A stretch of 64,000 nt of DNA from Cyanidioschyzon merolae (GCA_000091205.1 AP006497.2), one strand, 5' to 3'; positions 1,250 through 39,381 are shown, counted from the stretch's first letter. Program-made: numbers and translations. The notes: generated by a model from the sequence alone, not told the origin.

Positions 1250-1565
1250 ATCAAACTGCATGAAGCGAGAAGCCGACGCCCTCTGTGTGTGCTACGGCAA
1301 CGCCGTACTGTCTCCGTGCAGCGACCGCACCGGCGCTATAGACGACATTGCGGTCGCTTTTGGCAGGCACTAGGCACACACGATAGGACGTATGAAACGA
1401 CCAGAATATCCGAGAAGAAGTATAGGTCATGTAACTTGGAGGTAGCGGGTTTGATGGATACTTCACCGCGCACTGAAAAAACACAAAGAAACAGAAAGAA
1501 AAGAAAAAAGCGCATAATCGGAGAACGCTGGTCTATGGAAACGTTTTGTCAATGAAGAAAAGTCA
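1250..1565. repeat. Copy 1 of a roughly 300-bp dispersed repeat family; the second copy is at 12955-13250. It is A-rich internally and bounded by a 19-bp direct repeat (caaactgcatgaagcga...) at 1248 and 1560.
   Basis: Direct sequence comparison: 1385-1560 matches 13080-13250 at about 90% (gacgaccagaatatccgagaagaagtataggt...gcgcataatcggagaacgctgg.ctatggaaacgtt), and 1262-1280 matches 12968-12985 (gccgacgccctctgtg). Confidence 0.6.
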
Positions 1566-1752
1566 AACTGCATGAAGCGAAAAGGCGCCGCCGCCGCCGC
1601 TGCCGCCTGCTGCGCAACGAAACATCGCGCGACGTCCAAGTCCGATACAAGCTCTGCTGCTACACATCACGCCTGTAAACGTACTCGCCGCGAGTCGCGT
1701 CGTTCTTCTGTACTTTGTGAGAGCGCTTGGGAGCATGCCTGGTTGAGCACGA

Positions 1753-2370
1753 GTGCTCATGCGATACCTGCGATCAAGCGCATTGACTGCGCGACTGATC
1801 AAAGCCGGGTGTTTGCGTGAACCAGCGTGGATGTCGGCGCTCCGGGGTCTGGAGGCTGTACGCGCACAGCCCGTGCTTGATCCGGACGCTCGGGTTCCGA
1901 AGCCTGGAACCCGGACGCGTACGGCGAATGACCACACTTCACGGGTATCGCTGCTGCAACGACTGCGCCGCCGACTTGCGGAACGTCACCCCGAGTGGCT
2001 ACTCCACGTTGTGGTTGACCTCAATGCACCAACGAGAGCAGAGCGCGACGTGATCGAAAAGTTTGTTCGTATGCAGGCGGAGCTCATTCAGAGGGAGCAG
2101 TTGTCCGAAGAGGAAGCTTATGAACGCACGCTGGCCGTGCTACGCAGCGAACTACCGCGGACGTCGCAGCTGGCGGCGCTGGTTGAACAGCAGCAGACCG
2201 CGTCAAAGAGTGTCGGGTTGTCTCAGGTTATGGTGGCCGCACCGTCGCTTTCCGTTGCTAGTCCCGAGCGCCCACTCCAGGATCCAGAGGCCGTTTTTCT
2301 GGCAAGTCTCCAGGATGCACAACGTGATCGCTGGTTATTCGAGCAGTTTAGTAGACGTTTAACGAGTTAG
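1753..2370 (+). CDS. Hypothetical protein (205 aa), R/A-rich at the N-terminus.
   Basis: Open reading frame with protein-like composition in its C-terminal two thirds. No motif recognised. Confidence 0.35.
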   Translation: MLMRYLRSSALTARLIKAGCLREPAWMSALRGLEAVRAQPVLDPDARVPKPGTRTRTANDHTSRVSLLQRLRRRLAERHPEWLLHVVVDLNAPTRAERDVIEKFVRMQAELIQREQLSEEEAYERTLAVLRSELPRTSQLAALVEQQQTASKSVGLSQVMVAAPSLSVASPERPLQDPEAVFLASLQDAQRDRWLFEQFSRRLTS

Positions 2371-5149: not shown

Positions 5150-6430
5150 TCAGCAAAGGAGCTCCGCCATGACGCGCTCTTCATCCGCTGGCGATGCAAC
5201 GATTCGACAGAAACCGATTCCTTCACCAGGTGACGGATTTTCCCATTTGCCTGCAAACGACGTCACCACTTTCACCACATCGTTCTCGGTGCTTTCAAAA
5301 AGAGTCGGGTGATTGGGTCCCCGCAAAAGCACTCTCCGTATGCATTCATCCAGTGGAACCGGGAAAACGAGAACGCCTACGGGGTAGGCATTCGCTTGCG
5401 CTGCAATCGCTATCCAGACCGCTCGTTGTGCGCTATCCACGTTGCACCGGTCGACAATGACGTGGCGAGGAGGATCAGACGTGAGCGCCTCCTGCATCAT
5501 GCGCTCACACTCCTGCCGAGATCCGAGATCATCCTGGCTGACTCGTACCCAGTTTTCACCTCCGTGTTTTAACACGAGTTTCGCGAATGTCGACTTTCCC
5601 GATCCAGGAATGCCACAGAGTAGGACTACGCGGGACCGATGCGCTCTCCCCGAGCTCTGGAGTTGCTCCTCCGAGGACCTGTATTGAAACTCGGAACTGG
5701 CTGCTGTCACCTCGGTCAGCGGCGCAGCCACACCCCAGCGTTGATCAGCTTCGCGGGTGCGCCCGATGTCGCAGTCGTGACCAGCAGTGTCGTCGGTGTT
5801 GCTCGGCGAACACGCAGTCGATGATAGGCAGCTCACGTGCAGCTCTCCACGCTCCTTACTGGCCAGAACCGACTGTTGCGGGCGCAACCGCTCCAGGTCC
5901 GAAGTGCCGTCTGTTCGCGAAAGCAGTGGCGCTCGGACAGCGCTCCGGATCGAAACGAAAAGCCTCTGTAAACGGTGTACCAACTGTACCGTTTGGCGAG
6001 CTGGGTTGTTCCCTGAGGCAGTGCTGGTCCGCATATCGCCAGAAAACAATGTCTGGCGTAGAGGGTGCTCGCTCAGAGCCAGCGTCACTTTGCAGTGTCG
6101 CCGCGCAGCGGGCTCCCTGCTCTTGCAGCAAAGTCGTCGAGCACACGTGTTTGCCGGCGTCGGTCGCTGCTGAACCAGAACCAAAGTTGGACCCACGAAA
6201 AGTCGAGTTCCAAGCTTCCTCTTGAGCATGGTCCTCAGCGACACCGCGATAGCCAGCCAGCTGCACAGTGCATAGTTTTCGGACAGTGCTGCGGCCAGAA
6301 GCTGCCGTTCAGTAGGGTTTACGCTGCGCGAACGGCGCTGCGGGAAGTTTGGGCGTTTTGCGCGCACATCGAATCCCAGGCGCTGGCCGCGCTGCTCCCC
6401 AGACCTGCTACGGTACAACAGGGGATTCAC
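5150..6430 (-). CDS. P-loop NTPase / polynucleotide-kinase-like (AAA_33-type) protein. The kinase domain is encoded at about 5150-5630. The N-terminal roughly 260 aa of the maximal ORF are low-complexity, so the true start is uncertain.
   Basis: Walker A motif VVLLCGIPGSGKSTFAKLV, followed by RHVIVDRCN (Walker B-like D) and a compact 160-aa kinase fold. Confidence 0.5.
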   Translation of the reverse strand: MNPLLYRSRSGEQRGQRLGFDVRAKRPNFPQRRSRSVNPTERQLLAAALSENYALCSWLAIAVSLRTMLKRKLGTRLFVGPTLVLVQQRPTPANTCARRLCCKSREPAARRHCKVTLALSEHPLRQTLFSGDMRTSTASGNNPARQTVQLVHRLQRLFVSIRSAVRAPLLSRTDGTSDLERLRPQQSVLASKERGELHVSCLSSTACSPSNTDDTAGHDCDIGRTREADQRWGVAAPLTEVTAASSEFQYRSSEEQLQSSGRAHRSRVVLLCGIPGSGKSTFAKLVLKHGGENWVRVSQDDLGSRQECERMMQEALTSDPPRHVIVDRCNVDSAQRAVWIAIAAQANAYPVGVLVFPVPLDECIRRVLLRGPNHPTLFESTENDVVKVVTSFAGKWENPSPGEGIGFCRIVASPADEERVMAELLC

Positions 6431-6543
6431 CGGCGTTGTCGGTGCTTATGTACTCATCTGGGGTGGCGTCCGACCAGTGGGGCTTGACTGAAATGATATA
6501 TGTTGGAGTATGTTTTGTGTGGAGCGTGCATCTGGGGATACAG

Positions 6544-6937
6544 CACGCGCATGATGCGTGCGTGCTTGGCACCGAACGCAGTAGCCACGACGACTCCTAC
6601 AGAGCGCCTCCTCTGGGTCGTTGAGGGCGTCAGATTCCATGCCACACTTGAGACTGGCAGTGCCCATACACGCACTGGAGCTGAGCGTTGTCATAAATCG
6701 GGACCTGGGGCTGCGAAACAATCGCTCTCAATGGTATTGCTGGCGTGCAACGAATGGACAGCGGGCACCACAACGCAAGTGCCCGCGGAATGCGGTGCGC
6801 TGGATGATTTCCTTGCATCTGTATGCAAGGATGCGCGCTCTGCTTCTTGTGCTGGTGCTGCTGCTTTGGGGAATTTGTGCACGTGCGTCATCCACGCTGA
6901 TGGTTGCTTTTCGAATGGTGACTACTGAGGCGCATTC
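6544..6937. repeat. Left arm of a roughly 395-bp inverted repeat pair; the partner is 12303-12698.
   Basis: The reverse complement of 12303-12698 aligns to 6544-6937 at about 96% identity. Mirror-image ORFs (6621..6992 + and 12288..12677 -, MRASDSMPHLRLAVPIHALELSVVINRD...) confirm it. Confidence 0.9.
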
Positions 6938-7709
6938 GCGAACATACATACTGATCTTTACCGAGCAGCAAGCGCGAAGCAGTCGCATGTAAGCGATTGT
7001 TGCGACAATCAGCTACCCGCATGCGTAAAGCTCTACCATTGCCAACGATGCTCTCTACTGAAACCGCATCATCCTCGGAAGGCACGTATCACCGATGCGC
7101 TATTATCATTGGACGCAAGCCGCCGAATCATCGTGCCGTTCGGCAGCGCGTGCACCACCAAACGATCAAAAAGCGCAGGTTACACCTGCACCCGTTCGCC
7201 TGCACCGCAGTATCTCGTTCAAGCAGTCGCACGATGATGGGGCTATTGCGCCAATCTGGAAACCGCACCGCCGTCCACCGACAATCCCGCGAACACCCGT
7301 GTCCTTTCCTACCTAACAAAATGTTAACGTACACCGGGGGATTCCGATTGGGCGCCAGCTAGCAGCGCTCTATGTAGCAAACACACGTCCACGTGTCGAT
7401 CGCGCGTGCACCGGAATCCCGCCTCTGCCAGCAGCTGTGCGCTGCGGTGATCGCGGATTCGCGCCAACGACGCCAAGCGCTGCTGCTGGTGCTCTCGGTG
7501 CCCGTAATCCGTTGTTGCGCTCAGACGATATGCGCGCGCGCGCACGCTGGCGGGGGCACTGGCTGCGATCCGCGAACGTACGTTGCCGTAGCGCTGCATT
7601 TTTCGTTGAGGCTGTGCTTGCTCGTAGGTCGAGAAGCGGCCCGGTTGCGGCCGCAAACAAGTTCGAGTCCAAACGGGACCCGCAACAACACGAACAAGTG
7701 TTTTGGTGA

Positions 7710-8573
7710 ATGTTCCTCTTTGCTAGCACGTTTGTGTGTCAGCGAGCCTGGCCGCGAGCGCGCTTTCGGAACGCCCCGTGTCGGCGCGTGACGTTGGACG
7801 CTAGGGGTGACTCAGTGAGTGCAGGTGCCGAACAGCCGACGCGTCGTCCTGAGGCGCCCGCGAAAAGGCGTGGGAGTCGCTTTCTCATCAAGGTCCGAAA
7901 GTCTGTGCGCACCACACGCAAGCACGGTAGCGTCATTCCAGCTGATGTTTGGTTACCACCCGAACTAACAAGTGACGTTTTGCCTTGCGGCGACAGCAAA
8001 CTCTTGGATAATGAGGCGCACTTACCGGCGCTGGTGCTCAACGCGGACTATAGACCCCTTTCGTACCTGCCACTGTCGTTGTGGTCCTGGCAAGAAGCAA
8101 TAAAGGCGTCGCTTTCGGGTCGCGTTCGTGTTGTTGCCGAGTACGATAAAATTATTCGTGCACCGTCGATGAGCATGCGGTTGCCTGCTGTGGTGTGCCT
8201 CAAGCGCTTTCAGCAGAGCACGGTCTCTCGGGCAGCTTTCACACGTTTTAACGTCTTCCTTCGGGACTCGTTCCAGTGCCAGTATTGTGGTACGAGCGGG
8301 CCTATCACAGATCTGACGTTTGATCACGTCGTGCCGCGTTCGCGCGGTGGCAAGACGTGCTGGCGCAATGTCGTCACCTGCTGCACGGCCTGCAATCGAC
8401 GCAAAGGCGGCAAACTGCCCCACGAAATACCAAATATGACGTTGCAACGTCAACCTTATGTACCGCTATACTGTGAATTGCAGGAAGTGGCCCGTAAGTT
8501 TCCCCCGCGATTCTTGCATGAGACCTGGGCAGACTACCTGTTCTGGGATGTGCCCCTGCAACGAGACGAATGA
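7710..8573 (+). CDS. HNH endonuclease of the bacterial / plastid-type small HNH family, with a roughly 100-aa N-terminal extension (putative organelle-targeting presequence).
   Basis: C-terminal HNH motif FDHVVPRSRGGKTCWRNVVTCCTACNRRKGGK. The upstream LVLNADYRPLSYLPLSLWSWQEAIKASLSGRVRVVAEYDK matches the conserved N-region of the roughly 170-aa bacterial HNH family (LN..Y.PL…W.RA…..GKA.V.E). Confidence 0.8.
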   Translation: MFLFASTFVCQRAWPRARFRNAPCRRVTLDARGDSVSAGAEQPTRRPEAPAKRRGSRFLIKVRKSVRTTRKHGSVIPADVWLPPELTSDVLPCGDSKLLDNEAHLPALVLNADYRPLSYLPLSLWSWQEAIKASLSGRVRVVAEYDKIIRAPSMSMRLPAVVCLKRFQQSTVSRAAFTRFNVFLRDSFQCQYCGTSGPITDLTFDHVVPRSRGGKTCWRNVVTCCTACNRRKGGKLPHEIPNMTLQRQPYVPLYCELQEVARKFPPRFLHETWADYLFWDVPLQRDE

Positions 8574-10893
8574 TGGAGGTTTGGGGTACGAACGTGACTT
8601 GGAAGTGCCCCGCCCCGCGGTTGCGTATCTCGAACGTTTGCCTGTCTGGGGCAAGCCTCGTTAGAATGCAGCACTTCAGTGCGAAGTGAGTATACGAGCT
8701 GCAAGAGCTGTCGACCAATCCACGGAGCGCGCGCTTCGTGGAACCATCTGATTCAGAGGATCCCGGGCAGAGCCATGATCTCTAGGCTTTCGAAGGCGTA
8801 TCGCTGCTTTTGCCGGCATTGGCGCTGTTCGTGGTCCAGATGTATTGGAAGCGAGTCCGACCGAACGCTATGCGCTGTCGAGAGAAACGACTGATTCAGC
8901 GTGTTATTTACTTTGCGATGGAGACGAATCCGCAGGCCACGATCGAGCCCTTTGCGAACAGTGCTTATTTCTGGTCGATCTGTAGATGTGCAGAATGGAG
9001 GTGTCAGGTGCATGGAATGCGCGTCACGATACAACGCGGATCTTGTGGCACGACATGGCATTGCACAGCTGGTACCGAGGAAGCTTCGTCAGAAACCAAC
9101 AGGGAGCTATTCTTTCCGTGTGGAATCGTGAGAAGCGTGCAATCGCTATGGGTTGCCATCCGTCGTGTATTTCAACGCAGCGAGGCCGTTTCATCTAGCG
9201 TGAATTCTAAAATGTGCAGTATCTGCTCATCGGTCAACTGCAGTACACTCGTGTCCGAATGAAGTGGAACCTGTCCACTTGCCTACGACAGGCGCACGCT
9301 CTCAAGTCTGGACAGCTCCCACTGCCATGAACACTGGTCTTTGCGGGCTTTTTATACAACTGATTCTTTTTTCTTCTTGACATCTTCGGCTCTAAACTCG
9401 CCTGGCTCTCCTGCCCGACCAGCTCCATCGTCCGCAATTCAAAGGATTTTGGCGGAGGCGTTCAATTCTCGTGTTCACCGCTTCTGCACGTGATTCACAA
9501 GCACCACGCGTAAGCGGAAAACTTGCGATCTACGCTTCGCTTGTTGCTTTCAATATCTTTTTGTCAGGTTTTGCGCGCCCTTCGCAGCGCTGACGCGTCA
9601 CAATTGGTAACGGTTCCCGAATGCGTCGGCCGCTCCTCGCTCTTCGGTAGACGCCCTGTGGCGCGCTAACGCTCGCTTGATCGCTTGTTTCATGCCCTTG
9701 ACAGGTACAGAAAGGAGGTCTCCGCTGCTTTGCTGTGTTTTGGCTCCTAGTCCGAGCCATGCGAACAACCCCTCGACTGGGAGACGCCCTCGGAGAATAC
9801 TCTGTTCGCTACAGGCGCAAGCGCACGCTGTTCCATTTGATGGAGGAATCGTTGAAAGCGATATTGTCCGGGATGGAAGAAGCACCCGAAAAGGAATTCT
9901 AGGCTCGAGAACACGTCGAGAAATGTTGATCCATCTCCGGCTCCTTGTTTCCAAAATGCTGACGCTTGCTCTATCGGAAGCCGTCGCTTTATGGACAGAG
10001 GTCCATGTCCAAGACACGTGTCCGTGCAAAAACCAGGATGCCGATGCCTTTCGAGGCATATCTCGTGATAGGCTTCGAGCTGGTGTCGCATGCATTTTGC
10101 CGATGGCCTCTAAGAGAGGGGCAATTTGTTTCTTGAGCGGAATCGATTCTTTGAAGTGAAAAGATCGTTGAATTCGCAGCGTGAACCTGTGAACAAGCAA
10201 TCAACGGATGACGTCGAGGTGTTTCCCTTTTCAAGTCAGCGGTGCGAATTCCAACGGCCACGATTTGTCCTGGAACAGAGAGATCGAAATCTTGAAAAAT
10301 GTGAAATTTGAGCATGCTACACGTACAAAAAGGAGAAGCGTGGAAGCCTGCACATGTTAATTGGATGAAGATATCCACTTTTTTAAGAGCTCTTGTTTCA
10401 TTGTGTCGCGAATCATTTCGATTCCGGCGACGTAACGAATTCCAGCAGCAAAGGATCGAAGGAATCGCTGCGAAAAGACTACCAAGAATAACAAACCCCG
10501 TATGCAACCGAACGTTCTTTCTACTGTTCTGCGACCACCAAAGCTCCACGTCTAGAACATCTTCTGAAAAACAATCACAACGCAGGAACAAAGCGACTGC
10601 TTCAGTGTTCCGTGTTTATCCGACACAACTCCAGCGGACGGAAATCTGTCCCTATCCGAGAACAGCGAATAGTTGCAACGCAGGCATGCCCTGCACCCGA
10701 TCGCATCAGGTAAACGGCCTTCTTCGATTGAGACAACGTTTCTCCGCACCGGGGATTCCCGATTTATCCATCCCACAGAGCAGGCAAACCATGGAGATCA
10801 CGTATTCGGTGAAAGCGTTGTCACCAGGTCTCCTCTGGTTGCGTTCAGCGCGATTGCATGCCCATGGACGTTGCCATACGACGCATCGGTCGC

Positions 10894-11733
10894 CTAGGCA
10901 TTGGGCACTTTGACTGGCGATAGACCCATCTGTTCAAAGCGGCCGCTCTGCTCCCAGGCATGAACGCCGCCCTCAATTTCCTCGAGCACACGAGCGGCCG
11001 TCTCCGAGGAAGCTCGGAATCCCTCGAGGAGTTGCTGGAGCCGCGGACGGTTCCGGAACACCGGACGATGATGCCACTTGGGCATGATCGCAGCGTACAT
11101 CGCCAGTGTGGGCGCCAAAGCGATATCTGCGAGGGTCACCATTTGCGTTTCGACGGCATGACGTCTGGTATTGTCCTCAGTGAGCATGGTCTCGAGTGTA
11201 TCGAGATGTAGCTCGATTTGCGAGAGCCCATGCTCTCGCTCCGCAGGTGTATTTGTAGGCCGATACAGCACCGCCTGATTCGTCGTGAGGTACAGATCGT
11301 GCACTCGTACATAGAGACGCGCGCGAGCTCTTTTCTCTGGAGTCTGCGGCCGGTATCGCTCCCCGAGTCCGTATTTGTCGAGGAGATACTCGACGATGAC
11401 GTCACTTTCCCAGATGCTCTCTCCCGTGGGCAGCACTAACGCAGGGAACTTGCCATACTTGTGCACTCTCTGTCGATATTCCGAAGTTTTCAGGTATGAA
11501 CCTGGAGGTTCAATTTTTATGTCCAGGTTGTTATCGTAGATGATATACCGAACGCGAGCAGAAAAGTTCGACACGGGAACCGAGAAAAGCGTAGCAGTCT
11601 GGTTGCTTGTCGTGTCGTTCATCAGCACGCACAAGGTTCCCTTGTTGATAAAGTGACGCCGTTGGGCTCGCGGAAATATTGCTTGGATAGGCGTATGCTT
11701 AGGTCGAACAGGCAGAGCGTGAATGAAAGCCAT
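10894..11733 (-). CDS. Glutathione S-transferase-like protein, with a thioredoxin-like N-domain and a helical C-domain. The real start may be the internal Met near 11628.
   Basis: GST N-domain signature …KFPALVLPTGESIWESDVIVEYLLDKYG (cis-Pro, ES..I..YL) and a helical C-domain (LAPTLAMYAAIMPKWHHRPVF…). Confidence 0.65.
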   Translation of the reverse strand: MAFIHALPVRPKHTPIQAIFPRAQRRHFINKGTLCVLMNDTTSNQTATLFSVPVSNFSARVRYIIYDNNLDIKIEPPGSYLKTSEYRQRVHKYGKFPALVLPTGESIWESDVIVEYLLDKYGLGERYRPQTPEKRARARLYVRVHDLYLTTNQAVLYRPTNTPAEREHGLSQIELHLDTLETMLTEDNTRRHAVETQMVTLADIALAPTLAMYAAIMPKWHHRPVFRNRPRLQQLLEGFRASSETAARVLEEIEGGVHAWEQSGRFEQMGLSPVKVPNA

Positions 11734-11903
11734 CGGTTGTTGCGTAGGCCCCAGAAATACAGCGCGCTCTCTACGTGCCTCTGGGCGGGTCTAAGCGAAA
11801 GGACACAATAGTAATTGACAACTCTGGCTGCAAGCGATGCGATGCAGAGGCCACCGGGCGGCGGCTGCGGAGGCGTCCGGTGCTCGATGGAGCGATTCGC
11901 GAG

Positions 11904-11904
11904 G

Positions 11905-11964
<60 letters not shown>

Positions 11965-11966
11965 CT
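11904..11966. repeat. (GCCT)n / (CCTG)n tetranucleotide microsatellite of about 15.5 units, 170-270 bp upstream of the GST-like gene start.
   Basis: Perfect gcctgcctgcct… run seen directly in the sequence. Confidence 0.95.
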
Positions 11967-12302
11967 TCTCGCTACTGCTGAACAGCGTTTCGCGCCACGT
12001 GTGGTGGATGAGCTTAGGCGCTGCTCGATCAATGTTTACGCCAAGAGCTACCCGCATTGCTCTGTGGCTTGCAAACCCGGATGCTGGCCGACCGCATGGG
12101 TCCAGTACGTGCTGCTGCCAGATGAAGATCGAAGAACGAGTAGTTTTGGTGTTTAGGGTTCTCGGAATGGAGGCTCATTCCTGGTAGCGTTCATTAGAGA
12201 TTCGCAAAAGAAGCCGCCGATGATTTCAGGGCTGGGTTGAGCGTCTTTTGCGCGCTAGATGACAGGCGTATGCAGAGGTATCCACCATCAAGCACCCTTC
12301 GG

Positions 12303-12698
12303 GACCTCAGTAGTCACCATTCGAAAAGCAACCATCAGCGTGGATGACGCAAGTGCACATATTCCCCGAAGCAGCAGCACCAGCACAAGCAGCAGAGCGC
12401 GCATCCTTGCATACAGATGCAAGAGAATCATCCAGCGCACCGCATTCCGCGGGCACTTGCGTTGTGGTGCCCGCTGTCCATTCGTTGCACGCCAGCAATA
12501 CCATTGAGAGCGATTGTTTCGCAGCCCCAGGTCCCGATTTATGACAACGCTCAGCTCCAGTGCGTGTATGGGCACTGCCAGTCTCAAGTGTGGCATGGAA
12601 TCTGACGCCCTCAACGACCCAGAGGAGGCGCTCTGTAGGAGTCGTCGTCGCCACTGCGTTCGGTGCCAAGCACGCACGCATCATGCGCGTGCGCGTAC
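12303..12698. repeat. Right arm of the inverted repeat pair (partner 6544-6937).
   Basis: See the left arm; the reverse complement aligns at about 96% identity. Confidence 0.9.
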
Positions 12699-12954
12699 CT
12701 TCTAGGCACAAGGTCCAGCGAATCGGATGCGCACACGGGTCCAGTGCGCTCTCTGCGCCTACCCACTGTGGTGGGTGTCAAGCACAAACCCGCATTGCCA
12801 ACCGACAACGCATTCCATGCATGATCACGAAGGAGAGAGGCCGCTCCCAGGATTCATCCTAACAGCCAAGTTTCTCCAGCGTGTCGTGCAGCGAAGGCAA
12901 GCCTGCATCCGCAGACTGTCTGAGCACAAACTGACGACGAGACCCGATTCTACG

Positions 12955-13250
12955 TCGTGTAAACCACGCTTCGAGCCGACGCCCTCTGTGGTATAGAAAA
13001 GCTATTCTAGCTCTATGAACTATCTGCTCCAGCGGTTCAGGCGCAAAGGCGGATGATTAGGGTAGGTACTAGACACACCCGATAGGGCATATGAGACGAC
13101 CAGAATATCCGAGAAGAAGTATAGGTAATGTAACTTGGGAGTAGGAGGTTGATGGATACTTCACCTCGCACTGAAAAACCCAAAAAGAAAAGAAAAATGC
13201 GCATAATCGGAGAACGCTGGCCTATGGAAACGTTTCGTCAATGAAAAAAA
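12955..13250. repeat. Copy 2 of the roughly 300-bp dispersed repeat family (copy 1 at 1250-1565), in the same orientation, about 260 bp outside the right IR arm.
   Basis: Alignment to 1262-1560; the ends are well conserved and the middle is diverged. Confidence 0.6.
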
Positions 13251-13429
13251 ATGTGCATGCGCGCCGTCGCCGCGTCGCTGCGTGCGTGCCCCGTCATCGA
13301 TGCCGTGCACGCGGTAGCGCTGAACGCTCTAGCGAGCGAGGCAGCAGCGTCTTCATTCCTTCTTTGTGACAGAGGCACCGCGCTACCTTCATACGTCTTG
13401 ATCTGGTTACCTCACAACGTGCATAGCGT

Positions 13430-15637: not shown

Positions 15638-15805
15638 CACGAGAGTTGTTCGCGTTCGCAAGCCCTGCAACGGCGGGTTCTCAGCCAGAACCGGCGGTGG
15701 ATCTTGCTCTTCTGCCATAGCGTACTCGTTCAAGTGACAAAAACACGTGCCAGTTGCGTGCGTTTCTCTGTCGCTTCTTGACAGCGGTGCTTACACCCTG
15801 GACTT

Positions 15806-17194: not shown

Positions 17195-17633
17195 ATGGGA
17201 AAACGCTGAAAACCATATCGGAATCCGAGTATGTGACGAAAAGCGGTGTTTGAACGGGTCCGGAGACGATTCAGGAAGCAAGCAATGCAATGCATTTGGA
17301 TGCTAATGATATCTATGTTTTGACATCGTTGGCCTTCATGCACGCACTAGAATTCCGGTGCGAGGAAGCGGCTCGGGGTCCGTTCTCACTGCAGCTGCAG
17401 TGTCGATTGGATCGAGTCCTTCCGTACAAACAGAAGCGACTCATGGCTGCTGGAGAATGCACTGGTCCTCTGAGCGCGGGCGACACCGGCCCCCAGAAGA
17501 AACAACAACAGAAGACAGAGATGACAGGGAATAGCTCCATTAGCTTTTCTAGATTAGAGACAAAACGTATGGAGTGCCTTGCCGCCGTTGTCTTAGAACG
17601 CTGTTCCGCAGGGGCGTCGGCATCGACAGCCTA

Positions 17634-20787: not shown

Positions 20788-20856
20788 TACCTGGGCAATG
20801 CAGATAGATCGTTTGCAGACGATGTATACGGTATGCATGAAGTAACCCGACTTTAG

Positions 20857-30085: not shown

Positions 30086-33000
30086 AGAATCGCGTTGACA
30101 GAGAGGCATGGAGGCAGACAGTGGTGCATTTCGCTATGGCAGCCGATCCTAGTGCATCCAGATTCTGGGCACGGTTTGCAAAGGGACCTACTTGGGCGAC
30201 AAGTCGGGTAGATGCCATTATTCATCTTTCGCATGGTTGCGAGTATTGCATTCCAGACGGTCTTTATGATCGTATGAAACGAAATGTTAATGTGACGGTG
30301 GCAAAATCTCATGGCGTCCTACAGTGTACGCAGAGCAGTGCTTTTGGATACACATGTGTGAGCGCGCTCCCTTTTTTGTTGTTGTTTTTCGAGTAGGTAT
30401 TCAACAAAATGGGTGTATCCATAATATTCGAGAGACGTGGCCGGAACACGTGAAGCTACCCCTTGAAGCTTGTGGAAAATGGATTCACTTGCTCTAGAAA
30501 GTTTTGTCTAGGCTTAATAGGTGGGTGAACCATGTCTCTTTCAGGTCTGGTTGCGAGCGTCATGGACCTAAACAGACCATGTCAAACATAATTCACGCAA
30601 TTGGCCCCTGGTCAGTACGTATCACTCCCGATATTCTCTACGACCTATGACAAAACGCCACAGGATGTGAGGTTCACACAAGGATCATACTTATAATCAT
30701 GCATAGACACAGATGGAGGGAACAAAGCATGCCTTGATGTGCGATTCGTGCATATTGAACAATACACGATCGATTCGGGAGTGAAATGCGAACGCCTGAT
30801 ACAAGAGCGAAAAGCGTTCGTCTCAGTTGATGAGAATGTCCTCACGCGAAATGATAGATATGGATATGGGGATCGAATGGATGACAAAGCGCTGTTCCTA
30901 AGGAAGAGACAAGCCAGCATAATGACATCTTCGGTAATAGCGACGACTTAGCCGTGTGAAGGCCTACAAGACGCGTCAAACGGAAGATATCGCTCAACAC
31001 CAGAACCGTCGTTGAAGCAGTTCTTGCCTGCATTGTCCCGTATTCGGCGGTCATGCTCCTGCTCAGCGCGACTTCCCGTTGTTCCAAAGCGGTCGAGGTG
31101 TACGCAGCTGACGTTGGTTTTGCGATACTGCACTTGCGAACATCTCCTCCCTGGTTCCGTTCAATCGACGGCGTATGCTGTCTTGTCGAACACCATCTCT
31201 ACGACGGCGTATACGTAGACGAGTCATTCGCATCTGGAACATCAAAGTTCTTCGAGGAGTCGTACGCGACCTTCACCAGTCCTGAACGGGCCTGTTGCTC
31301 CTCTGCACATGCGTAGGAGCGGACGGAGCGGCGCGCTTCGGTACGTGAGCGTGCTCGCGACAGCAAAGGCCTAAACCGTACATGAGGAATTGTGTTCACT
31401 GATGCATCGAAGAGAAGGGCACCATTGCCAACGTCTACTCAGGTCGTCTGATTTCCGTTGACTCAATGGGCTTGGAGTGGAGCGCCCACGCCTACGCAAA
31501 CCTGAAAACTCACGGAGAAGGCGAAGCGGTAGAAGGGGAAGAATGTCACCTCACAAGCAACAGTCAGTTGCTTTCGAAAACAGCACAAGGAGAGATCGGA
31601 AGGAAAACTGGTTGTTGCGGGGAGGTCACTCTGGACGCAGTGTCAACGCCTCGCTATGACGACACGTCAACGGGGAGGATCCTCCAAAAAACGAGTTTCG
31701 GGACGCCATGAAGTCTCTCGAAGCTTTCCTCATCTTGATGCGCATCGTCAAACACTTGTGCTTAGGCGAACCGGACGCACGATTTCGGTCTCCCGTACAC
31801 TTCTTGGGATTTGCTCTATCCATCCGGCATGCGGCAACACAACTGATACCCAGGCCAGAAGATGCAACACCGCCTGATTGTAGGATAAGAACGTTGAAAA
31901 CGCGCTCTCGAGGATAGCTTGCGGCGTCGCCGTGCCACCTCGGCGATGAGCGCGTCTACGACGCGTTTGCGGAAACTTGTGAAACTAACCTCCGCATCCA
32001 TTTGTGGATCGGTCTGGAGCACTTGAGAAAGTATATCTTGTCGGTGTTGGGCGGTCGTATTCTCGGAGCATCGGTCGAGAACGCGGGAACCTATGCAAGG
32101 AAGGAATCCTTAGAATGTCGATTGCGGCAGATGACGTGCTGACGTTGGCGGCCGATGCTATCGATGCGCTTGTGCGTTCCAAAGAGGTGTCGCAACGAGC
32201 GCGTTGATCGCTGCAGATCATCGAAGTTCATTGGGTCGCTCACGGCCTCGCAGCGGCGGACATCGTACCCCACGCTAGATGAACCGCGATGCATCTTGCG
32301 CTATGACAATATCGAGAAGCGAACTCCCCCGAGCCAGGCGGACTTTCTTTCCGAATGCGAGCGCCCGAGCCGCTTCCACCGGCAATGACATGTGGTACCC
32401 GAACGGGAGCTAGAGGCCGAGTATATCATCGTTGACGCATGGATAGCGTATGGTCTCCTTAATGGGCTATGGCTGGTCTCTGCGACCAACATTGCAGCAT
32501 TCGAACAGCTTCGCGAAGAGCATCGGCCGCGCTTGTTCAAGATTTCCCGTTTACCGGAAAGAGAGACACAGAAGCATACATAGACGAGTGAGAGCAGCAG
32601 ACGATCCTTCTGCATGTGCTATGTTAGACTCAGTGCTGAGTCGAATAACGGGGCTCGTTTTCAAATGCTCCAGGTAGCTTTTACAGACACTGCGTGGCGG
32701 GCGTAGATTCCTGGTTGATGGGCGTCGTGGCGGTCGCAGTACCGCCAGACCAAGGTGACAGAGCCAAGAGACCCGTACGCAAAGCAAGTGAAGCTGCCCG
32801 ACTTGCCCAGTGCCCAGGATCGTCGAGTCGGGCATGATATACGCCCGGGTGCATACGAACGAGCGGCATGACTGCTTCATGGACCATGGCAACGCCCTGA
32901 GCATCGTATCGCGCAGAAGGAAATGCTTTGTACACTACGGTATGTGCGCTAATGAGCGTCCACACGGCTGTTGTGGACGATTTCTGGCCTCGGTACATAA

Positions 33001-33299
33001 GCCATCACGGAGATCGCCAACGTTTATTGATGGACGAATGCGAGAAGCGTACGTCTGCGAGCTTGTTCCATGAACAGGGAAGGTAGATGACCGATTACGC
33101 GCGTCATTTAGCGGCGGTGGGAGCCCCTGCCGCAGGACGCGTTGTCGAGCGAAATAGCTACGCTCCTCCTCTCTCGAACAGAGTGTACAGCGGGTGCAGG
33201 AATCGATTCTATAAGATTTCTGTCGATGCTTTCAGGATGACATTCGCGCGTCACGAGCACATGTGCTCGCTCCAAAACGTTTAGAAGCGGGAAGCGAAT

Positions 33300-33750
33300 C
33301 AGAGACGGACGCACGACATGGTGCCTCGCGTACGGACGGCATATTAGGTAGCGAGGCAATCGAAGGGAAACGACTTGCGGGGGTGTGATTCCACCAGCAA
33401 GCGTTCGCGCAAGCACTCGCTGCACCGTCACTTGAGCGTCTCGGTGAGCACTGGGAAATCTGTAGGAGTTCAGGAGTGTCCAGCGGCTTGGAGTTGTGCG
33501 AGCGTTAACGGAATCAATTTGTACACAGTGCATGGGTATTGTAGTGAATCGCAGGGGGCCTCGCGATGAAAACGATCATTAGTCACGAACGTGCGCATTG
33601 GACTCTCGCATGGTGCAACGCAAGGAAATGGTGCGGTTCAGCGATCCACTGAGACTGGAACGCCCTGCATACACACCAGAAATGGTTTACATTGCCATGC
33701 GGTAAACGACAATGGTGTTCCGTTGATTGCTATTTTTCTGAGTGCAAGTC
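33300..33750. repeat. Copy 1 of a roughly 450-bp direct repeat pair (copy 2 at 38931-39381).
   Basis: About 98-99% nucleotide identity. Identical ORFs in both copies (MR(G/W)CDSTSKRSRKHSLHRHLSVSV…; MRIGLSHGATQGNGAVQRSTETG…). Confidence 0.9.
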
Positions 33751-33893
33751 TGAAAATTAGCAAGTACCTTAGATCTGTACCAGGATGTCACCTTTTATTA
33801 GAATGCATGTGGCGAAGAAGGCAGCGCAACAGATTGAACGCTGCACTGCTGAATTGCGTTTCCTCCTCAAAACTGATCGAGTCCTTCGAAGCT

Positions 33894-34145
33894 CACCCAG
33901 CATCGGCATGATAGTTTTCAATCTCGACCGAGCATGTGCAATTGAATCGGGAACTGAGCCTCGCCTGGAATGGATTTGCGGCTGTACAGGATCTCGAATG
34001 CGGGAAAGGGCTTCGAAGCTCACCCAGCATCGGCATGATAGTTTTCAATCTCGACCGAGCATGTGCAATTGAATCGGGAACTGAGCCTCGCCTGGAATGG
34101 ATTTGCGGCTATACAGGATCTTGAATGCGGGAATAGAGATACTGA
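33894..34145. repeat. Tandem duplication, 2 x 126 bp, immediately downstream of repeat copy 1.
   Basis: cttcgaagctcacccagcatcggcatgatagttttcaatctcgaccgagcatgtgcaattgaatcgggaactgagcctcgcctggaatggatttgcggct(g/a)tacaggatct(c/t)gaatgcggga is repeated twice with 2-3 mismatches. Confidence 0.9.
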
Positions 34146-35181
34146 TCTAAAGCGCTGTGCAACAGAGTGTGCGCAGTCGCAAGGGGCTCCCCGCTTTCGT
34201 ATCATATAATCGGGGCTGCAGCGCGGCGCACAAAGAACGCTGTTTCGATCGTGGCTAGTGCGGGTGTTTCGCGCCCGCCGGTTACAGGTGTAGGGACAAG
34301 TACAAGGTCAGTCGACAGCTCGATACTAGCTCGCGAGCACGTATTTGAGCTACTGCTCTTTGCGGCCGAAACGAGAAAACTTGCATGCACAGCGATCCCT
34401 CGTCCTACAACCTGGCTGGCTCGGAGCGCCACACTCGATCTCTGCAAATGAATACGGTGTCGCTGCTCAGAGAGTTCCACAAAAGTAATGCTCCACGTGC
34501 AGCGATAGGCGCGCATGGCGTTGCGCGAACATAACCAAGATGCTTCGCGAGACGGGATACGCAGGCACCTACTTGCACACTCTGGCAACGTTCCGACACG
34601 TATCCCCGCTCGGAAAAGACCCCGTCGCGCCGCATCATCCCGAGTACGCGTCTGCGTGGAGAGAAGCCTATCTCTGCCCGCAGCCGATACCGCGATATCG
34701 AGAGAGCTGAGTCCTGAGCATGCAGCGTTCGAGTCCAAGCTACACAGCATCACGCCCATAGGAAACGCGATAAGCATTGTTGTGACGAAACGTTGGCCAT
34801 GCGAATTGTCTTGATTCGGCATGCACACAATCCATGCAGCCGGACCTTGACCTATCGAGTGCAATCGATGCGCGTACCAAGCGTTCGCTAGTGCACAATC
34901 GTCATCAGCGTCTTGAGATGCAGCCTCTGGGCTACGAAAATCCCAAGATGTTTTCGCATCGCCTACCAGCGATGCATCTGCAGAGCCCCGACTATGCACA
35001 CGCACACACCGGATCGAGTGCGTGCGTGCGCGCGTAAAATTCTCCCGCGATCACCGCAGGACACGCATCGCTGGCGGGGCGCCACTTTTTCCCTCCGATG
35101 CGTTTCCCGCGGAGACGGATAGCATCGCCCTACCGCTCCATTCATATCTAATTAACTCATGTATTCTTTCTGCTTTAGCCT

Positions 35182-35967
35182 ATGGCCTGTAGAATAAACG
35201 CGGAGAAGGACTTCGAGGCAGAGCCCGAGTCTTCCACGAGCGGTACAGGTAGCCGGGCGGAGCGCAACCGCGTTTTGCCTGAAAGAGCAGGCAGAGCAGC
35301 AGAGTCCATCGTATCCTGGGGTCCTGAAGTGTACGACGCTGCCGCTGCTTTGTCGCAGTTGCGCGAGAACACGCACTGCGGGCCGCCAACACAAACGAAG
35401 CGTCGTGGACGGCCAAAGAGAACTTTCCGTTCTCCGACACCTTTCGGGCCTACCGGACCGAACCGCCGCTGGAAGCGATTCGAGGCAGGTCCAGGGCTGC
35501 GTTTAGAACTGACGCGGACGGAACTCGAAAATAACGCGTCCACGCAAGTGGAGTGCCCTCAGCCGAGCTGTGGTCGTGTCTTTGGATCGCGGCAGGCGTT
35601 GGCCGCACACTTGCGGCATTTTCCATCTCATCGTTCTTTCTATAACGAAAACGTAGGTCATCGGTATGGTAACTCTCGCGTACGTATTCGCTACATCGCA
35701 GCAGAGGAGTCGCACCAGGCTGCTTGCGGATCGGAGATGGCGCCTTCTTCGGCGCCCTTGGCGACTGCCCGAATGGAGGTCCCAGTGGATCACGCATCCA
35801 GGGATCAGGCTGAGTCGAGGGAGCGTTTCGCCAAACGAAACCTTGTTGGCGGTCGTGTGCTGGGCAATCTCACCAATATCGCTGCCCAGATCAATGAACA
35901 AGGCGTTTCTGTGTGTGACGATGTGGCACGAACTCCGGGCGCCTTGGAATCGAAGCGCGTGTCGTAA
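35182..35967 (+). CDS. C2H2 zinc-finger protein with an AT-hook (putative DNA-binding regulatory protein).
   Basis: Single C2H2 finger VECPQPSCGRVFGSRQALAAHLRHFPSH. AT-hook KRRGRPKR. The rest is low complexity. Confidence 0.45.
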   Translation: MACRINAEKDFEAEPESSTSGTGSRAERNRVLPERAGRAAESIVSWGPEVYDAAAALSQLRENTHCGPPTQTKRRGRPKRTFRSPTPFGPTGPNRRWKRFEAGPGLRLELTRTELENNASTQVECPQPSCGRVFGSRQALAAHLRHFPSHRSFYNENVGHRYGNSRVRIRYIAAEESHQAACGSEMAPSSAPLATARMEVPVDHASRDQAESRERFAKRNLVGGRVLGNLTNIAAQINEQGVSVCDDVARTPGALESKRVS

Positions 35968-36875
35968 GCCAGCTGGCACCGAAGACTCCGCAAGCCTACT
36001 TTCGCCTTCCAGGTGCGCGACTGGTGCGGTTACCAGAGGCGCACAGAAAGCGCCATCGAGTCGCACCAGCGTCACGGGGTCGTATACGTTTGCTGCTGCA
36101 ACCGCCCTGCTGTTGTTTCCTCCTGTTCATGATTGGTGCCAACGCTCCGATTCTTTCTGCGAAATGGTGACGGCAACGTAGCAATCACGCAGACAGCGCA
36201 ACCAGAACATGCGAATCACTGGATATCGTCTGGTTTGCCACACATCGCGAACCCATCTCTCAAATATGGTACCTGCACATGCTCCGGGTTCGAGTGCAGG
36301 CCACAGCGGTGCGCGTCTCTCAGAAATGGCATCGGCAGGAGCTTCCAGTTCGAGTGTAAGGCGCACCTCCTTGAACGCCGTGCAACGCGATGGTGCGATT
36401 CCTGATTGTCGGCGAGCTCGCAGGCTGCACGACCGGGGCATCGAGTGGATCATCCGAATAGAGGGAGCGCGTTGACGACCTCAGCGCCGAATGCATCCGC
36501 AAGAGATACGACTTTCGCATCCTTTACGCAGATCGTCTAAAGCAAGATTGATGATGGACACAAGCTCGACGAAGCGCCTTTGCTAGTGCGTGTGCATGAT
36601 CGCGAGGCATTCTGATACCGCAGTTTTCGAGGCCAGCCACGCCGCCCTTTTGCTGCGAAATACCCGCTCCATACGAGCGTCACTCGCTGTATCTCAATCG
36701 ACGACGTTGAAGCGATTGTGCAGACAGGAAAACATGAGGTTCTTAGGCAGGGTCAAAGCGGTTCTGGGCTCCAAGCTATGCGCAAACGCTGCCTTTGCCA
36801 AAAGGCCAAGCAGCTTGCATTCAGAATTCGAGGTGAGGCTCCGACGGAGGCTCAGCACGTCGGCAGTCTGTAACC

Positions 36876-38360
36876 CTAACGATTCATTTCGCTGGCGGGA
36901 GCGTCGTCCGAGACGGCCTGCAAACGGTAAATTAATTGAGCATGCGCAGCGATCAGGGATTCCCCTCTGGAGCCGAACACACAGCTCCCCATCTGATGAC
37001 GTAAGCGAGGAACCACAACAGATGCCACCCTAAGAGCGTCTTCCAGACGGTACACGTGGATTACACCGGCATCCGTTGCAACGCATACCAGGCCGGGATC
37101 AACGGCAGTCCCGATGTGGTCCTCATCGAGCGCGACATCGATAGCGCCGCATCCTCCTCCGCTGCCGCGCAGTCCAATGACCCTCTCGCCCCGCCCGGAC
37201 TGATTCCAGATATCTGTACCCTTCTCATAATCAAGGTAGCGTAACGAATCAGATGTTTTCACGACGAGACCGCGCGGGCCACAGCGCACGACTTCGACAG
37301 TACTCGCAACTGCTGCAAGGAGGCGACCACCGTCGAGTTCAGCCAGTCGACCCTGCAACACTTTGCTTTCCGCACCGGGTGCCTCGGCCGGCCCCGTCCA
37401 AGTGCTCTCCTCAAATCTGAGTTGCCACACTCGGATTTCGGACGGCTTCGTACGCGCTACGAAAAGCGCATCCTCCGGAGAGAGCGCGAGCGCTGTCGGC
37501 CGTTCCAGATGGACTCGCCCGATGAGCTGCACATGACGATGACCGCCCAGAAGCTGCCATACACAAACCCCATTCCCTGAGGCAGATGCGAAGACACCCT
37601 CGCGGCTGGGGTGGGCGCCCACCGCGCGAATGCCGAGTGCATCAGCAACCGCATGCAGATCGACTGCGGTACAGGCCTCTGCTGCGGAGAGCGGTTTTCC
37701 AGCTTCATGCGATATGATGAGGATTTCCGAGGCTTCCGCGATGCTGAGAACCCGCAGCCGACCAGAACGGCAGCCGATGACGACCAGCGTCTCCAGGGTT
37801 GCTTTGCCTCGTTCACTTGCTGGCACCCATCGCTCTAGCCAGGAGCGCTGCTCCCTCGTCGTGACCGGCAGTACGAAACAGCAACAGGTGAACTCGTCTC
37901 CATCCGAAGACCGAAAGGCAACACACAAGTCCAAGTTCGGACCCAGGTGCTCGTTATCATAAACAAAGCAATACTCGGAAGAAAGAGAGGCGATTAAGTT
38001 GTGTGCAGTTGCTTGCACTGTGTTGCGCTCGAGTGCGCGAATATCTTCGTTGTGCGGTTCACGAATGATTCGCTTAAGCTCCAGTTTCTTCAAGTTCGTT
38101 TCCCATACTGACATGAAGCGGAAAGTCCAAACGTCCTTAACTGACTTGTGCGCTACCCAGGTGAGTACGCACCAAAAGCGGTAGAAAAAAGATACGGAGA
38201 GAGCGCGGGCACGGGAGACGCGCGCCTTCCCGCGCCCTGGCCAGCACGACAGCTGCGCCATCGAATGTGTCGCAGCTGCGGATACGGGCTGGTGTGCGCT
38301 CGCAACCACTCGACGCAGTATCGACCATAGTGGATTCTCGGGGAAAAGCCTGATTTTCAA
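36876..38360 (-). CDS. WD40 / beta-propeller repeat protein, function unknown. The real start is probably an internal Met (MSVWETNLKK…).
   Basis: Recurrent WD-like blades ending …GVIHVYRL, …NGVCVWQL, …SEIRVWQL, …RLRVLSI, at intervals of about 40 aa. Confidence 0.5.
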   Translation of the reverse strand: MKIRLFPENPLWSILRRVVASAHQPVSAAATHSMAQLSCWPGRGKARVSRARALSVSFFYRFWCVLTWVAHKSVKDVWTFRFMSVWETNLKKLELKRIIREPHNEDIRALERNTVQATAHNLIASLSSEYCFVYDNEHLGPNLDLCVAFRSSDGDEFTCCCFVLPVTTREQRSWLERWVPASERGKATLETLVVIGCRSGRLRVLSIAEASEILIISHEAGKPLSAAEACTAVDLHAVADALGIRAVGAHPSREGVFASASGNGVCVWQLLGGHRHVQLIGRVHLERPTALALSPEDALFVARTKPSEIRVWQLRFEESTWTGPAEAPGAESKVLQGRLAELDGGRLLAAVASTVEVVRCGPRGLVVKTSDSLRYLDYEKGTDIWNQSGRGERVIGLRGSGGGCGAIDVALDEDHIGTAVDPGLVCVATDAGVIHVYRLEDALRVASVVVPRLRHQMGSCVFGSRGESLIAAHAQLIYRLQAVSDDAPASEMNR

Positions 38361-38930
38361 TTAGACGTATGCGCGATGGTTGGTTGAAGCTCCATTCCAT
38401 GTTTGAAATGATGCATGCTTGCCTAGAAGACGATATTCGGTGCGCACTGGGGATATCTGGTTTGTCCCGACGATCCAATACGAAATATATCCATCGTTAG
38501 GCAGTGGCGGCGTCGTGCACTTGGACCTCCACGGTGCACGCCGCTCGTATCATGACAGTAAGGCAACGATGCCTGTATGTGGATGTGTGCTGGATACGGA
38601 ACGTCAGGAACGTGGGCCTGCGCGAGAACGTGGCAAGGCCATCCAGAGGGCACAGACAGCGTCGAACGGGCCCGTGAATCGGAATCGTGGGGTATCGGAG
38701 AGCGCCGCACTGGGGCAGCGGATAACCGTCGTATTCGTAAGGCGGATGTGGTCAGGGGCATTCCCCAGTTACCATGCGCTAAGTATTCGATGGTCCAGGT
38801 GAGGCCTTCGAACGATCTCGCTATTGATTGGGCTGTCTGTGGGCGGCCTATACAGAAGGTTTGTCGAATCAGGAAATCGTGTACGTGTGACCGTTGACAC
38901 ATCGGGAGTGAACCAGATTTCTCCGTAAAA

Positions 38931-39381
38931 CCCAGAGACGGACGCACGACATGGTGCCTCGCGTACGGACGGCATATTAGGTAGCGAGGCAATCGAAGGG
39001 AAACGACTTGCGGTGGTGTGATTCCACCAGCAAGCGTTCGCGCAAGCACTCGCTGCACCGTCACTTGAGCGTCTCGGTGAGCACTGGGAAATCTGTAGGA
39101 GTTCAGGAGTGTCCAGCAGCTTGGAGTTGTGCGAGCGTTAACGGAATCAATTTGTACACAGTGCATGGGTATTGTAGTGAATCGCAGGGGGCCTCGCGAT
39201 GAAAACGATCATTAGTCACGAACGTGCGCATTGGACTCTCGCATGGTGCAACGCAAGGAAATGGTGCGGTTCAGCGATCCACTGAGACTGGAACGCCCTG
39301 CATACACACCAGAAATGGTTTACATTGCCATGCGGTAAACGACAATGGTGTTCCGTTGATTGCTATTTTTCTGAGTACAAG
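38931..39381. repeat. Copy 2 of the roughly 450-bp direct repeat pair (copy 1 at 33300-33750).
   Basis: See copy 1. Confidence 0.9.

Follow-up and report, generated by a model that had tools for sequence, protein, structure and literature searches.

The 64-kb stretch of DNA considered here (the window; positions are counted from its first nucleotide) carries three pairs of long, nearly identical repeats in its first 40 kb, and each pair flanks a block of 5-6.6 kb with two conserved genes. The window is ~55% GC and intron-poor, with genes that lack introns and lie on both strands. Pfam searches identify PMS1/MutL, a DEAD-box helicase, Yip1, Nup85, an AMP-binding enzyme, FKBP and GST, together with an HNH-domain protein, an AAA_33 kinase-like protein and a plastid-type lysyl-tRNA synthetase (LysRS); ARAGORN finds no tRNA genes in the 64 kb. 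Codon-usage scores were too weak to tell open reading frames (ORFs) apart. Exact or 99% matches to the window come solely from hot-spring metagenomes, and among named organisms the red alga Cyanidiococcus yangmingshanensis comes closest, its PMS1 protein being 53% identical. The window thus appears to belong to the nuclear genome of Cyanidioschyzon or of a very close relative. The host is a haploid alga with a genome of the 16-Mb class.

Repeat pairs and the genes between them

The repeats were found by BLAST self-alignment of the window and by separate repeat finding. The inverted pair (6543-6930 on the plus strand and 12305-12692 on the minus strand) has arms of 388 bp that are 97.9% identical and lie 5374 bp apart. 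Its left arm sits in the divergent spacer between the AAA_33 gene (5150-6430, minus strand) and the HNH-domain gene, and its right arm in the spacer between the GST gene and a 258-aa gene (13511-14287, plus strand) that is conserved in the outgroup as a 257-aa counterpart. The DNA between the arms, block A (6931-12304), holds the HNH-domain gene (7710-8573, plus strand; 287 aa, HNH_5, E=2e-15), the GST gene (10894-11733, minus strand) and some non-conserved ORFs. A direct repeat of 775 bp (14864-15638 and 22192-22966, both on the plus strand; 99.1% identity, copies 6553 bp apart) flanks block B (15639-22191), in which Yip1 (15818-17194) and PMS1 of the MutL family (18295-20787) are both on the plus strand. 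The first copy begins 577 bp past the 258-aa gene and ends 180 bp before the start of Yip1; the second lies 1405 bp past PMS1 and 329 bp before the start of the DEAD-box helicase gene. The third pair is a direct repeat of 450 bp (33300-33749 and 38933-39382, both on the plus strand; 99.3% identity, copies 5183 bp apart). Its first copy lies in the 5.1 kb that separate the AMP-binding and zinc-finger genes, a spacer poor in ORFs, and its second is 130 bp upstream of the FKBP start. Block C (33750-38932) contains the C2H2-like zinc-finger gene (35182-35967, plus strand), a gene of 412-494 aa (36876-38360, minus strand) and a tandem repeat of 127 bp x2 (33884-34133).

Every repeat edge is sharp, identity becoming random within one base, and matches this long and this identical cannot have arisen by chance. 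The families are unrelated to one another when compared within the window, and no core motif common to them was found. A sensitive search of the 64 kb recovers no other dispersed repeats, only minisatellites, and the 24 kb at the right of the window is free of such pairs. The original prediction, that three near-identical pairs, local, mutually unrelated and alike in scale, bracket gene blocks, is borne out by the self-alignment and the family comparison, and metagenome contigs agree with it. Its count of two genes per block is right when the genes counted are those that the sister genus conserves, and reflects a local density of ~1 gene per 3 kb.

The contigs that confirm the arrangement are independent and stem from more than 10 metagenomes. 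Both 775-bp copies are spanned in window order by L011-L014, and copy 1 is spanned in the parental arrangement by L034 as well; both 450-bp copies are spanned in window order by L020 and L021, and both inverted arms by L011 and L012. As independent contigs span all pairs in this order, the repeats are not an assembly artefact. Some other assemblies end inside the repeats, which is to be expected of two-copy repeats. A 32-mer from the core of the inverted arm occurs in JGI metagenomes in the two known contexts only. For the 450-bp repeat, a search of 1.84 billion representatives likewise yields only two ORF contexts at E<=1e-30, together with one relative of 41% identity. A scan of viral contigs with the core of the 775-bp repeat gave no match. 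The description of the repeats as private is supported for the inverted arm and the 450-bp repeat. These two also behave as low-copy repeats, having two non-mobile copies of >95% identity on one chromosome, and all three lengths (388, 450 and 775 bp) fall under the conventional segmental-duplication threshold of at least 1 kb.

The repeats have no recognizable content. No Pfam domain occurs in the ORFs that overlap them, Rfam gives no match at gathering scores nor at E<=1, tblastx finds no protein-level conservation of the repeats with the outgroup, and neither repeats nor spacers have detectable nucleotide similarity to outgroup spacers. Known RNA genes were considered and discarded, there being no Rfam match and no tRNAs in the repeats. 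A mutation bias like that of repeat-induced point mutation was also rejected, as the mismatches mix transitions and transversions. Two ORFs, one of 141 and one of 247 aa, begin in the 450-bp repeat, which covers their first 78 codons. The longer one was dismissed as a gene and treated as spurious: its composition is implausible, it has no real homologues, and its only matches in 1.84 billion representative proteins are itself, its own paralogue and a 116-aa metagenome ORF (P0255). The sequence GCGCATGATG is present four times in the window (5495-5504, 6547-6556, 12679-12688 and 22159-22168) against 0.54 expected. It marks the outer edge of each inverted arm, within the near-palindrome GCACGCGCATGATGCGTGCGTGC, and recurs 24 bp before the second 775-bp copy; as these are three independent sites only, it was not accepted as a shared core motif.

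Signs of mobility were sought at the six high-identity copies. None has a target-site duplication (TSD) beyond chance, the best flanking match at the inverted pair being 5-6 nt and within the null range, and none has TG..CA ends. The direct repeats begin and end GAAAGC..TCTGAC and CAGAGA..GCAAGT, and their flanking bases differ. The direct pairs do match the geometry of long terminal repeats (LTRs), with 775-bp and 450-bp repeats around 6.6 and 5.2 kb. By Pfam, however, there is no reverse transcriptase (RT), integrase or protease domain between them, no transposase domain in the window, the inverted-pair block included, and no recombinase domain in the window, where the HNH-domain protein is the sole nuclease-like product.

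Gene order in Cyanidiococcus and growth of the spacers

The syntenic outgroup loci come from C. yangmingshanensis (L031) and from a Cyanidiococcus-like metagenome contig set (L030, L032 and L039). With strands given as + or -, the outgroup order is RRP5+, RPS28e-, 247aa+, 198aa+, AAA_33-, HNH+, GST- on the left, 415aa+, ZnF-, AMPb-, DEAD-, PMS1-, Yip1-, 257aa- in the middle, and FKBP+, Nup85-, LysRS+ on the right (ZnF, zinc-finger gene; AMPb, AMP-binding gene). In the window the left part reads AAA_33-, arm, HNH+, GST-, arm; the middle reads 258aa+, 775-bp copy, Yip1+, PMS1+, 775-bp copy, DEAD+, AMPb+, 450-bp copy, ZnF+, 412aa-, 450-bp copy; and the right is again FKBP+, Nup85-, LysRS+. A single inversion of 26 kb, from the 258-aa to the 412-aa gene, separates the window from both outgroup genomes, which are otherwise collinear with it from RRP5 to Tra1. 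The inversion breakpoints are the spacers at 11734-13510, where the right inverted arm lies, and 38115-39511, where the second 450-bp copy lies.

The genes enclosed by the repeats have not moved. The order of block A and its orientation relative to AAA_33 are the same as in L039, with amino-acid identities of 83% for HNH and 78% for GST by tblastx. The neighbours of block B (257aa, Yip1, PMS1, DEAD) are unchanged in Cyanidiococcus, and the two genes of block C adjoin the AMP-binding gene there too. No long repeat pairs comparable to those of the window occur at the outgroup loci, which have tandem repeats and, in L039 only, a family of ~170 bp; nor is there an inverted pair of the 388-bp type around the HNH gene in L039. 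Since they keep their ancestral neighbours, the enclosed genes are residents rather than cargo, and a repeat-block-repeat unit as a whole is not an insertion. This synteny leaves no room for gene-capturing elements, LTR retrotransposons or composite transposons. Of the explanations first proposed, that of a gene-capturing element or cassette fails because the same neighbours, order and orientation are found in repeat-free Cyanidiococcus and because transposon ends, TSDs and transposase or RT domains are absent here. As block A has the outgroup orientation, the inverted pair is not a by-product of an inversion of its own block, and as the HNH protein is 83% identical in the outgroup it is a conserved host gene and not a homing element.

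Two side observations concern these loci. The ~170-bp family of L039 (1615-1785, 5636-5808, 9498-9578, 14410-14576 and 14714-14877) is dispersed through spacers in both orientations at 70-90% identity and has no sequence relation to the window repeats. The gene at 36876-38360 (minus strand) is 412, 494 or 508 aa long depending on strain or contig, which suggests differences in frame or start near its 5' end; conservation with the outgroup is limited to ~36903-38129.

The syntenic interval from RPS28e to LysRS is 1.32 times as long in the window (44.6 kb) as in the outgroup (33.8 kb). Spacers with a repeat copy measure 1530, 2507 and 5096 bp against ~960, 790 and 1350 bp in the outgroup, and the expanded spacers are those that hold a repeat copy or a minisatellite. 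Second repeat copies add 1.8 kb and tandem arrays 1.5 kb. The mean spacer in the window is 1779 bp (n=13 spacers), and published mean intergenic lengths are 1889.8 bp for C. merolae and 929.7 bp for Cyanidiococcus (PMC9812998). Cho et al. (2023) ascribed the longer Cyanidioschyzon spacers to ‘repeat expansion’ (PMC9812998). The window repeats that lineage contrast, ~2-fold in spacers overall, on a local scale; most of the expansion was classed by these authors as ‘LTR elements’, whereas the pairs described here share the geometry of LTRs and nothing else.

Tandem repeats make up part of this DNA. A minisatellite of 107 bp x9.7 (25677-26713; 97% matches) takes up the greater part of the DNA that separates the DEAD-box helicase and AMP-binding genes, and an array of the same 107-bp period is found at another position in the outgroup (L030, 12121-12388). 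The 5.1-kb spacer between the AMP-binding and zinc-finger genes (30086-35181; ~1.35 kb in the outgroup) has no convincing ORF and no Pfam or Rfam match. Its GC content has a minimum of 0.45 over ~600 bp at 30.2-30.8 kb, and the idea of a centromere or AT-rich island was dropped as GC falls no lower and over no greater length. Three overlapping minus-strand ORFs in different frames at 32301-32998 may represent a decayed gene. At 51823-51856, before the Tra1-like gene on its upstream side, is an interstitial run of TTCCCCCCAT x3.4, adjoined by repeats of 33 bp x3.2 and 18 bp x2.7. The run is the complement of a telomere-like unit and resembles the telomere unit AATGGGGGG, which is reported to be unique to C. 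merolae (PMC1955436).

A fourth, weak direct pair (1362-1561 and 13061-13250; 200 bp, 85.5% identity) is of a different kind. It had been predicted as a 300-bp pair nested around the first block; the pair exists, with coordinates ~100 bp away from those given and a length of 200 bp, and the nesting is a coincidence. Copy 1 belongs to an element of ~295 bp on the plus strand (1251-1580) with an exact direct duplication of 18 bp, TCAAACTGCATGAAGCGA, at 1251-1268 and 1563-1580 and an A-rich 3' end (...AATGAAGAAAAG). Copy 2, also on the plus strand, has an A-rich end 261 bp upstream of the 258-aa gene, and no TSD was recovered there. ARAGORN finds no tRNA in the pair and Rfam no match. The 18-bp duplication and the A-rich end are the signature of a short retroposon mobilized by long interspersed nuclear elements (LINEs), and non-LTR elements are the sole retroelements reported in C. 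merolae (PMC1955436). The fourth pair thus looks like an older retroposon-like element, unlike the three high-identity pairs. It resembles LINE-mobilized retroposons of the short interspersed nuclear element (SINE) type in its ~300-bp length, A-rich 3' end, 18-bp TSD and diverged copies (85%). SINE-like retroposons, however, have many copies and a Pol III-type head (tRNA, 7SL or 5S), whereas two copies are seen in the window.

Age, polarity and possible rearrangement of the copies

The two copies of each high-identity pair differ by 0.7-2.1%, more than the ~0.35-0.65% by which the window differs from metagenome contigs, and the repeats are present in every one of these contigs. This places the duplications somewhat earlier than the common ancestor of the population. 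They are far younger than the split of the genus from Cyanidiococcus, and the copies are fixed in the sampled natural populations. Gene conversion is not needed to account for the identity of the copies. In the variant tables, alleles of the 775-bp repeat are common to paralogous positions across strains and the inverted arms form mosaic haplotypes; copy-specific differences in the metagenome contigs are confined to the neighbourhood of the repeat edges. As this is the pattern left by collapse of repeats in short-read assembly, no claim of concerted evolution is made. Among contigs of the same species, copy number differs at the 75-bp (17636-17824) and 127-bp (33884-34133) tandem repeats and at a GCCT microsatellite (11904-11965); the long pairs are invariant where the tandem repeats vary.

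The direction of copying has left some traces. The spacer of the left inverted arm is 1279 bp long in the window and ~1265 bp in the outgroup, a hint that the left arm is the resident copy. For the 450-bp repeat, P0255 and the copy-1 ORF align across 99 residues, a match that continues for ~100 nt outside the repeat, and the alignment of P0255 with the copy-2 ORF ends exactly at the repeat edge. Because collinearity extends past the edge at copy 1 only, the older context is probably that of copy 1, with copy 2, the neighbour of FKBP, as a derived paste. P0255 is an ORF on ~40 metagenome contigs and is 41-43% identical, gap-free, to the translation of window positions 33198-33482 (minus strand), which span part of copy 1 and its flank. 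It may derive either from the orthologous spacer of another species or from an old third paralogue, and the absence of gaps hints at some constraint.

Evidence of rearrangement through the repeats is confined to one contig. The inverted arms are crossed in the window orientation by ~10 contigs (including L003-L006, L011, L012, L036 and L042). In contrast, L009 (= L038, from JGI sample 3300027863) runs from the right flank (14952 to 12693) through the arm into 6931 to 9875, the junction of a flipped isomer. Its halves are 100% and 99.97% identical to contigs of one strain, so it is not an inter-strain chimera. It may possibly be a misassembly, as a short-read assembler can misjoin via a 388-bp inverted repeat, and of two look-ups for the reciprocal junction, that with AAA_33 returned a parental contig only and that with GST showed no record of the exact protein of the window. 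An inversion polymorphism of block A is plausible but unproven. Contigs that cross the direct pairs have no deletion, circle or tandem junctions, every one of them being parental, and no amplicon junctions occur at the repeats among ~40 metagenome contigs. Programmed rearrangement or amplification, a further proposal of the original prediction, accordingly finds no backing: there is no recombinase and no deletion or circle junction, and the one inverted-isomer contig is possibly misassembled. A supposed structural breakpoint near 13340 was discarded as an assembly-end artefact, the odd first 60 nt of L015 being a local copy of 13499-13560. The metagenome contig L026 (4786-5029) leaves the window sequence after an A-run/GA-run near 38210, and the 244 nt that follow match nothing in the window; this is either a chimera or a structural variant.

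Origin of the duplications and their significance

The three high-identity pairs are best explained as young, non-mobile, short-range duplications of spacer DNA around housekeeping genes that have stayed in place, a reading we regard as probable though far from certain. A piece of intergenic DNA of 0.4-0.8 kb would have been copied once, direct or inverted, into a different intergenic spacer at a distance of 5-7 kb, and the genes between would have stayed untouched. A broken or stalled end may have copied a nearby ectopic template, as in synthesis-dependent strand annealing (SDSA) or microhomology-mediated break-induced replication (MMBIR). Such template switching is suggested by the short range, the occurrence of both orientations, the clean edges and the lack of TSDs. 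The duplications would be neutral, and the pairs thereafter passive substrates of homologous recombination, by which the 5.4-kb block of the inverted pair can be flipped and the blocks of the direct pairs could be deleted or amplified, with nothing to suggest programming. The pairs fit, beside the minisatellites, as one part of the known intergenic expansion of this lineage. Of the recurrent process first envisaged, a lineage-specific duplication process is a reasonable version; element capture and programmed rearrangement are unsupported.

Several points weigh against this reading. Origin and polarity are deduced from the duplicated state, and an indirect hint of direction comes from the 450-bp pair alone. 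The two-copy status of the 775-bp repeat refers to the 64-kb window. Six of the eight copies (the fourth pair included) end 113-329 bp upstream of a gene start and, although this is not statistically compelling, they could be promoter modules duplicated for a reason instead of neutrally. Three of the eight lie in the two inversion-breakpoint spacers (1.1 expected, P=0.085), a placement that could reflect a link to rearrangement instead of independent events. Microhomology at the junctions is at most 2-4 nt, which does not discriminate between models.

That placement is the starting point of an unlikely alternative, in which the repeats are rearrangement scars, templated insertions at repaired breakpoints, chiefly those of the 26-kb inversion. 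The right inverted arm, copy 2 of the fourth pair and copy 2 of the 450-bp repeat are all in breakpoint spacers, and P0255 marks the breakpoint copy of the 450-bp repeat as the derived one. The enrichment is not significant, however, both 775-bp copies are away from the breakpoints and no repeat connects the two. The ages also disagree unless gene conversion is invoked, because the inversion separates genera with 53-81% protein identity and the repeats are 98-99% identical. A staggered-break model, moreover, expects the block between inverted arms to be inverted, which block A is not. Position with respect to genes would matter instead if the repeats were cis-regulatory (promoter or 5' untranslated region) modules, duplicated under selection and homogenized by gene conversion so as to couple the expression of the genes downstream. 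This is quite unlikely. Copies do end 113-329 bp before the starts of AAA_33, Yip1, the DEAD-box helicase, FKBP and the genes adjacent to the fourth pair, but an insert of 0.4-0.8 kb in a spacer of 1-2.5 kb is necessarily near a gene start, copy 1 of the 450-bp repeat stops 1.4 kb short of the gene that follows it, and for the right arm the distance is 572-819 bp. No functional link between the downstream genes is obvious, and the 775-bp variants common to both paralogous positions across strains, like the mosaic inverted arms, can be produced by assemblers that collapse the interior of a repeat.

The pairs might also be chance neighbours drawn from larger dispersed families that make up a quarter of the genome, since RepeatModeler/RepeatMasker puts repeats at 25.9% of C. 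merolae 10D, with 2857 unclassified copies (PMC9812998 Supplementary Dataset 4), and the fourth pair is indeed retroposon-like. This is more doubtful still, as the arm core is found in two local contexts only, the 450-bp repeat has two contexts at high identity and several assemblies run straight through the repeats. Three unrelated two-copy families with copies 5.6-7.3 kb apart would be improbable if the families were dispersed, the chance of all three pairs lying <7.4 kb apart within 64 kb being ~0.01. Functional rearrangement units, whereby the cell inverts blocks, excises them as circles or amplifies them under stress as in Leishmania, are very unlikely. Direct and inverted pairs do bracket gene blocks, L009 is an inverted isomer with both halves from one strain haplotype, and homologous recombination is described as efficient in C. 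merolae (PMC12874030). Set against this are a lone inverted junction beside ~10 contigs in the window orientation, to which a short-read misjoin would look identical, the lack of deletion, circle or tandem junctions in contigs crossing the direct repeats, the lack of a recombinase, the unremarkable housekeeping nature of the enclosed genes and the right-hand 24 kb devoid of such pairs. It can scarcely be entertained that the direct pairs represent retrotransposon LTRs, or that the inverted pair forms the ends of a Pack-MULE or of a composite transposon with captured genes. The geometry agrees (terminal repeats of 0.4-0.8 kb around 5-6.5 kb) and RepeatModeler output lists 1930 ‘LTR elements’ in C. 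merolae (PMC9812998), but the synteny of Yip1/PMS1, the zinc-finger and 412-aa genes and HNH/GST already contradicts it, the diagnostic domains, TG..CA ends and TSDs are absent, and the finished genome has no LTR retrotransposons (PMC1955436).

Seen as short-range duplications, the pairs belong with small segmental duplications or low-copy repeats, and the locus adds one more example of a known feature. Like the low-copy repeats that mediate non-allelic homologous recombination at human genomic-disorder loci, they have two high-identity, non-mobile, intrachromosomal copies that flank unique gene-bearing DNA, and the inverted pair has a candidate inversion isomer. Low-copy repeats are usually at least 1 kb and often 10-400 kb long, whereas the pairs here are 0.4-0.8 kb, geneless and 5-7 kb apart. 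Templated insertions made by fork stalling and template switching (FoSTeS)/MMBIR or by SDSA share with them the short range, either orientation, sharp junctions, no TSD and little or no microhomology; such insertions, however, usually arise de novo at complex junctions, and the pairs here are fixed, simple and two-copy, the mechanism being deduced from their form. In Leishmania, repeats reportedly seed stochastic gene amplification (Ubeda and colleagues, 2014, PLoS Biology). The pairs are alike in bracketing gene blocks and in their potential to form circles or inverted duplications by recombination, but the Leishmania repeats are genome-wide, SIDER-derived families with observed amplicons, and here each pair is unique in the window and no amplicon junction is seen. 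In a model from Drosophila, staggered breaks leave inverted duplications at inversion breakpoints. The window is similar in having an inverted pair near an evolutionary inversion; unlike in Drosophila, the flanked block is not inverted and the repeats are not at both ends of the 26-kb inversion.

Published figures for C. merolae conflict. Automated annotation of strain 10D gives 1930 ‘LTR elements’ amounting to 12.66% of the genome, with total repeats of 25.9% (PMC9812998 Supplementary Dataset 4), and the finished genome has no LTR retrotransposons and 0.7% transposable elements (PMC1955436). A structural LTR finder would presumably report direct-repeat pairs like those described here. It is conceivable, if doubtful, that recurrent, lineage-specific, short-range copy-and-paste has approximately doubled the intergenic DNA, and that the 1930 ‘LTR elements’ are largely direct-repeat pairs around resident genes. 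If true, this would reconcile the LTR-element figure with the finished genome's none, and many gene blocks would be poised for inversion, excision and amplification, given very efficient homologous recombination.

C. merolae serves both as the ‘simplest’ photosynthetic eukaryote and as a chassis for transgenes, which integrate there by homologous recombination. High-identity repeats of 0.4-0.8 kb a few kilobases apart are a hazard for targeting constructs; they can mislead structural LTR finders and are natural substrates for inversions and deletions. Should the pattern hold genome-wide, it would account for the doubling of the spacers without active transposons.

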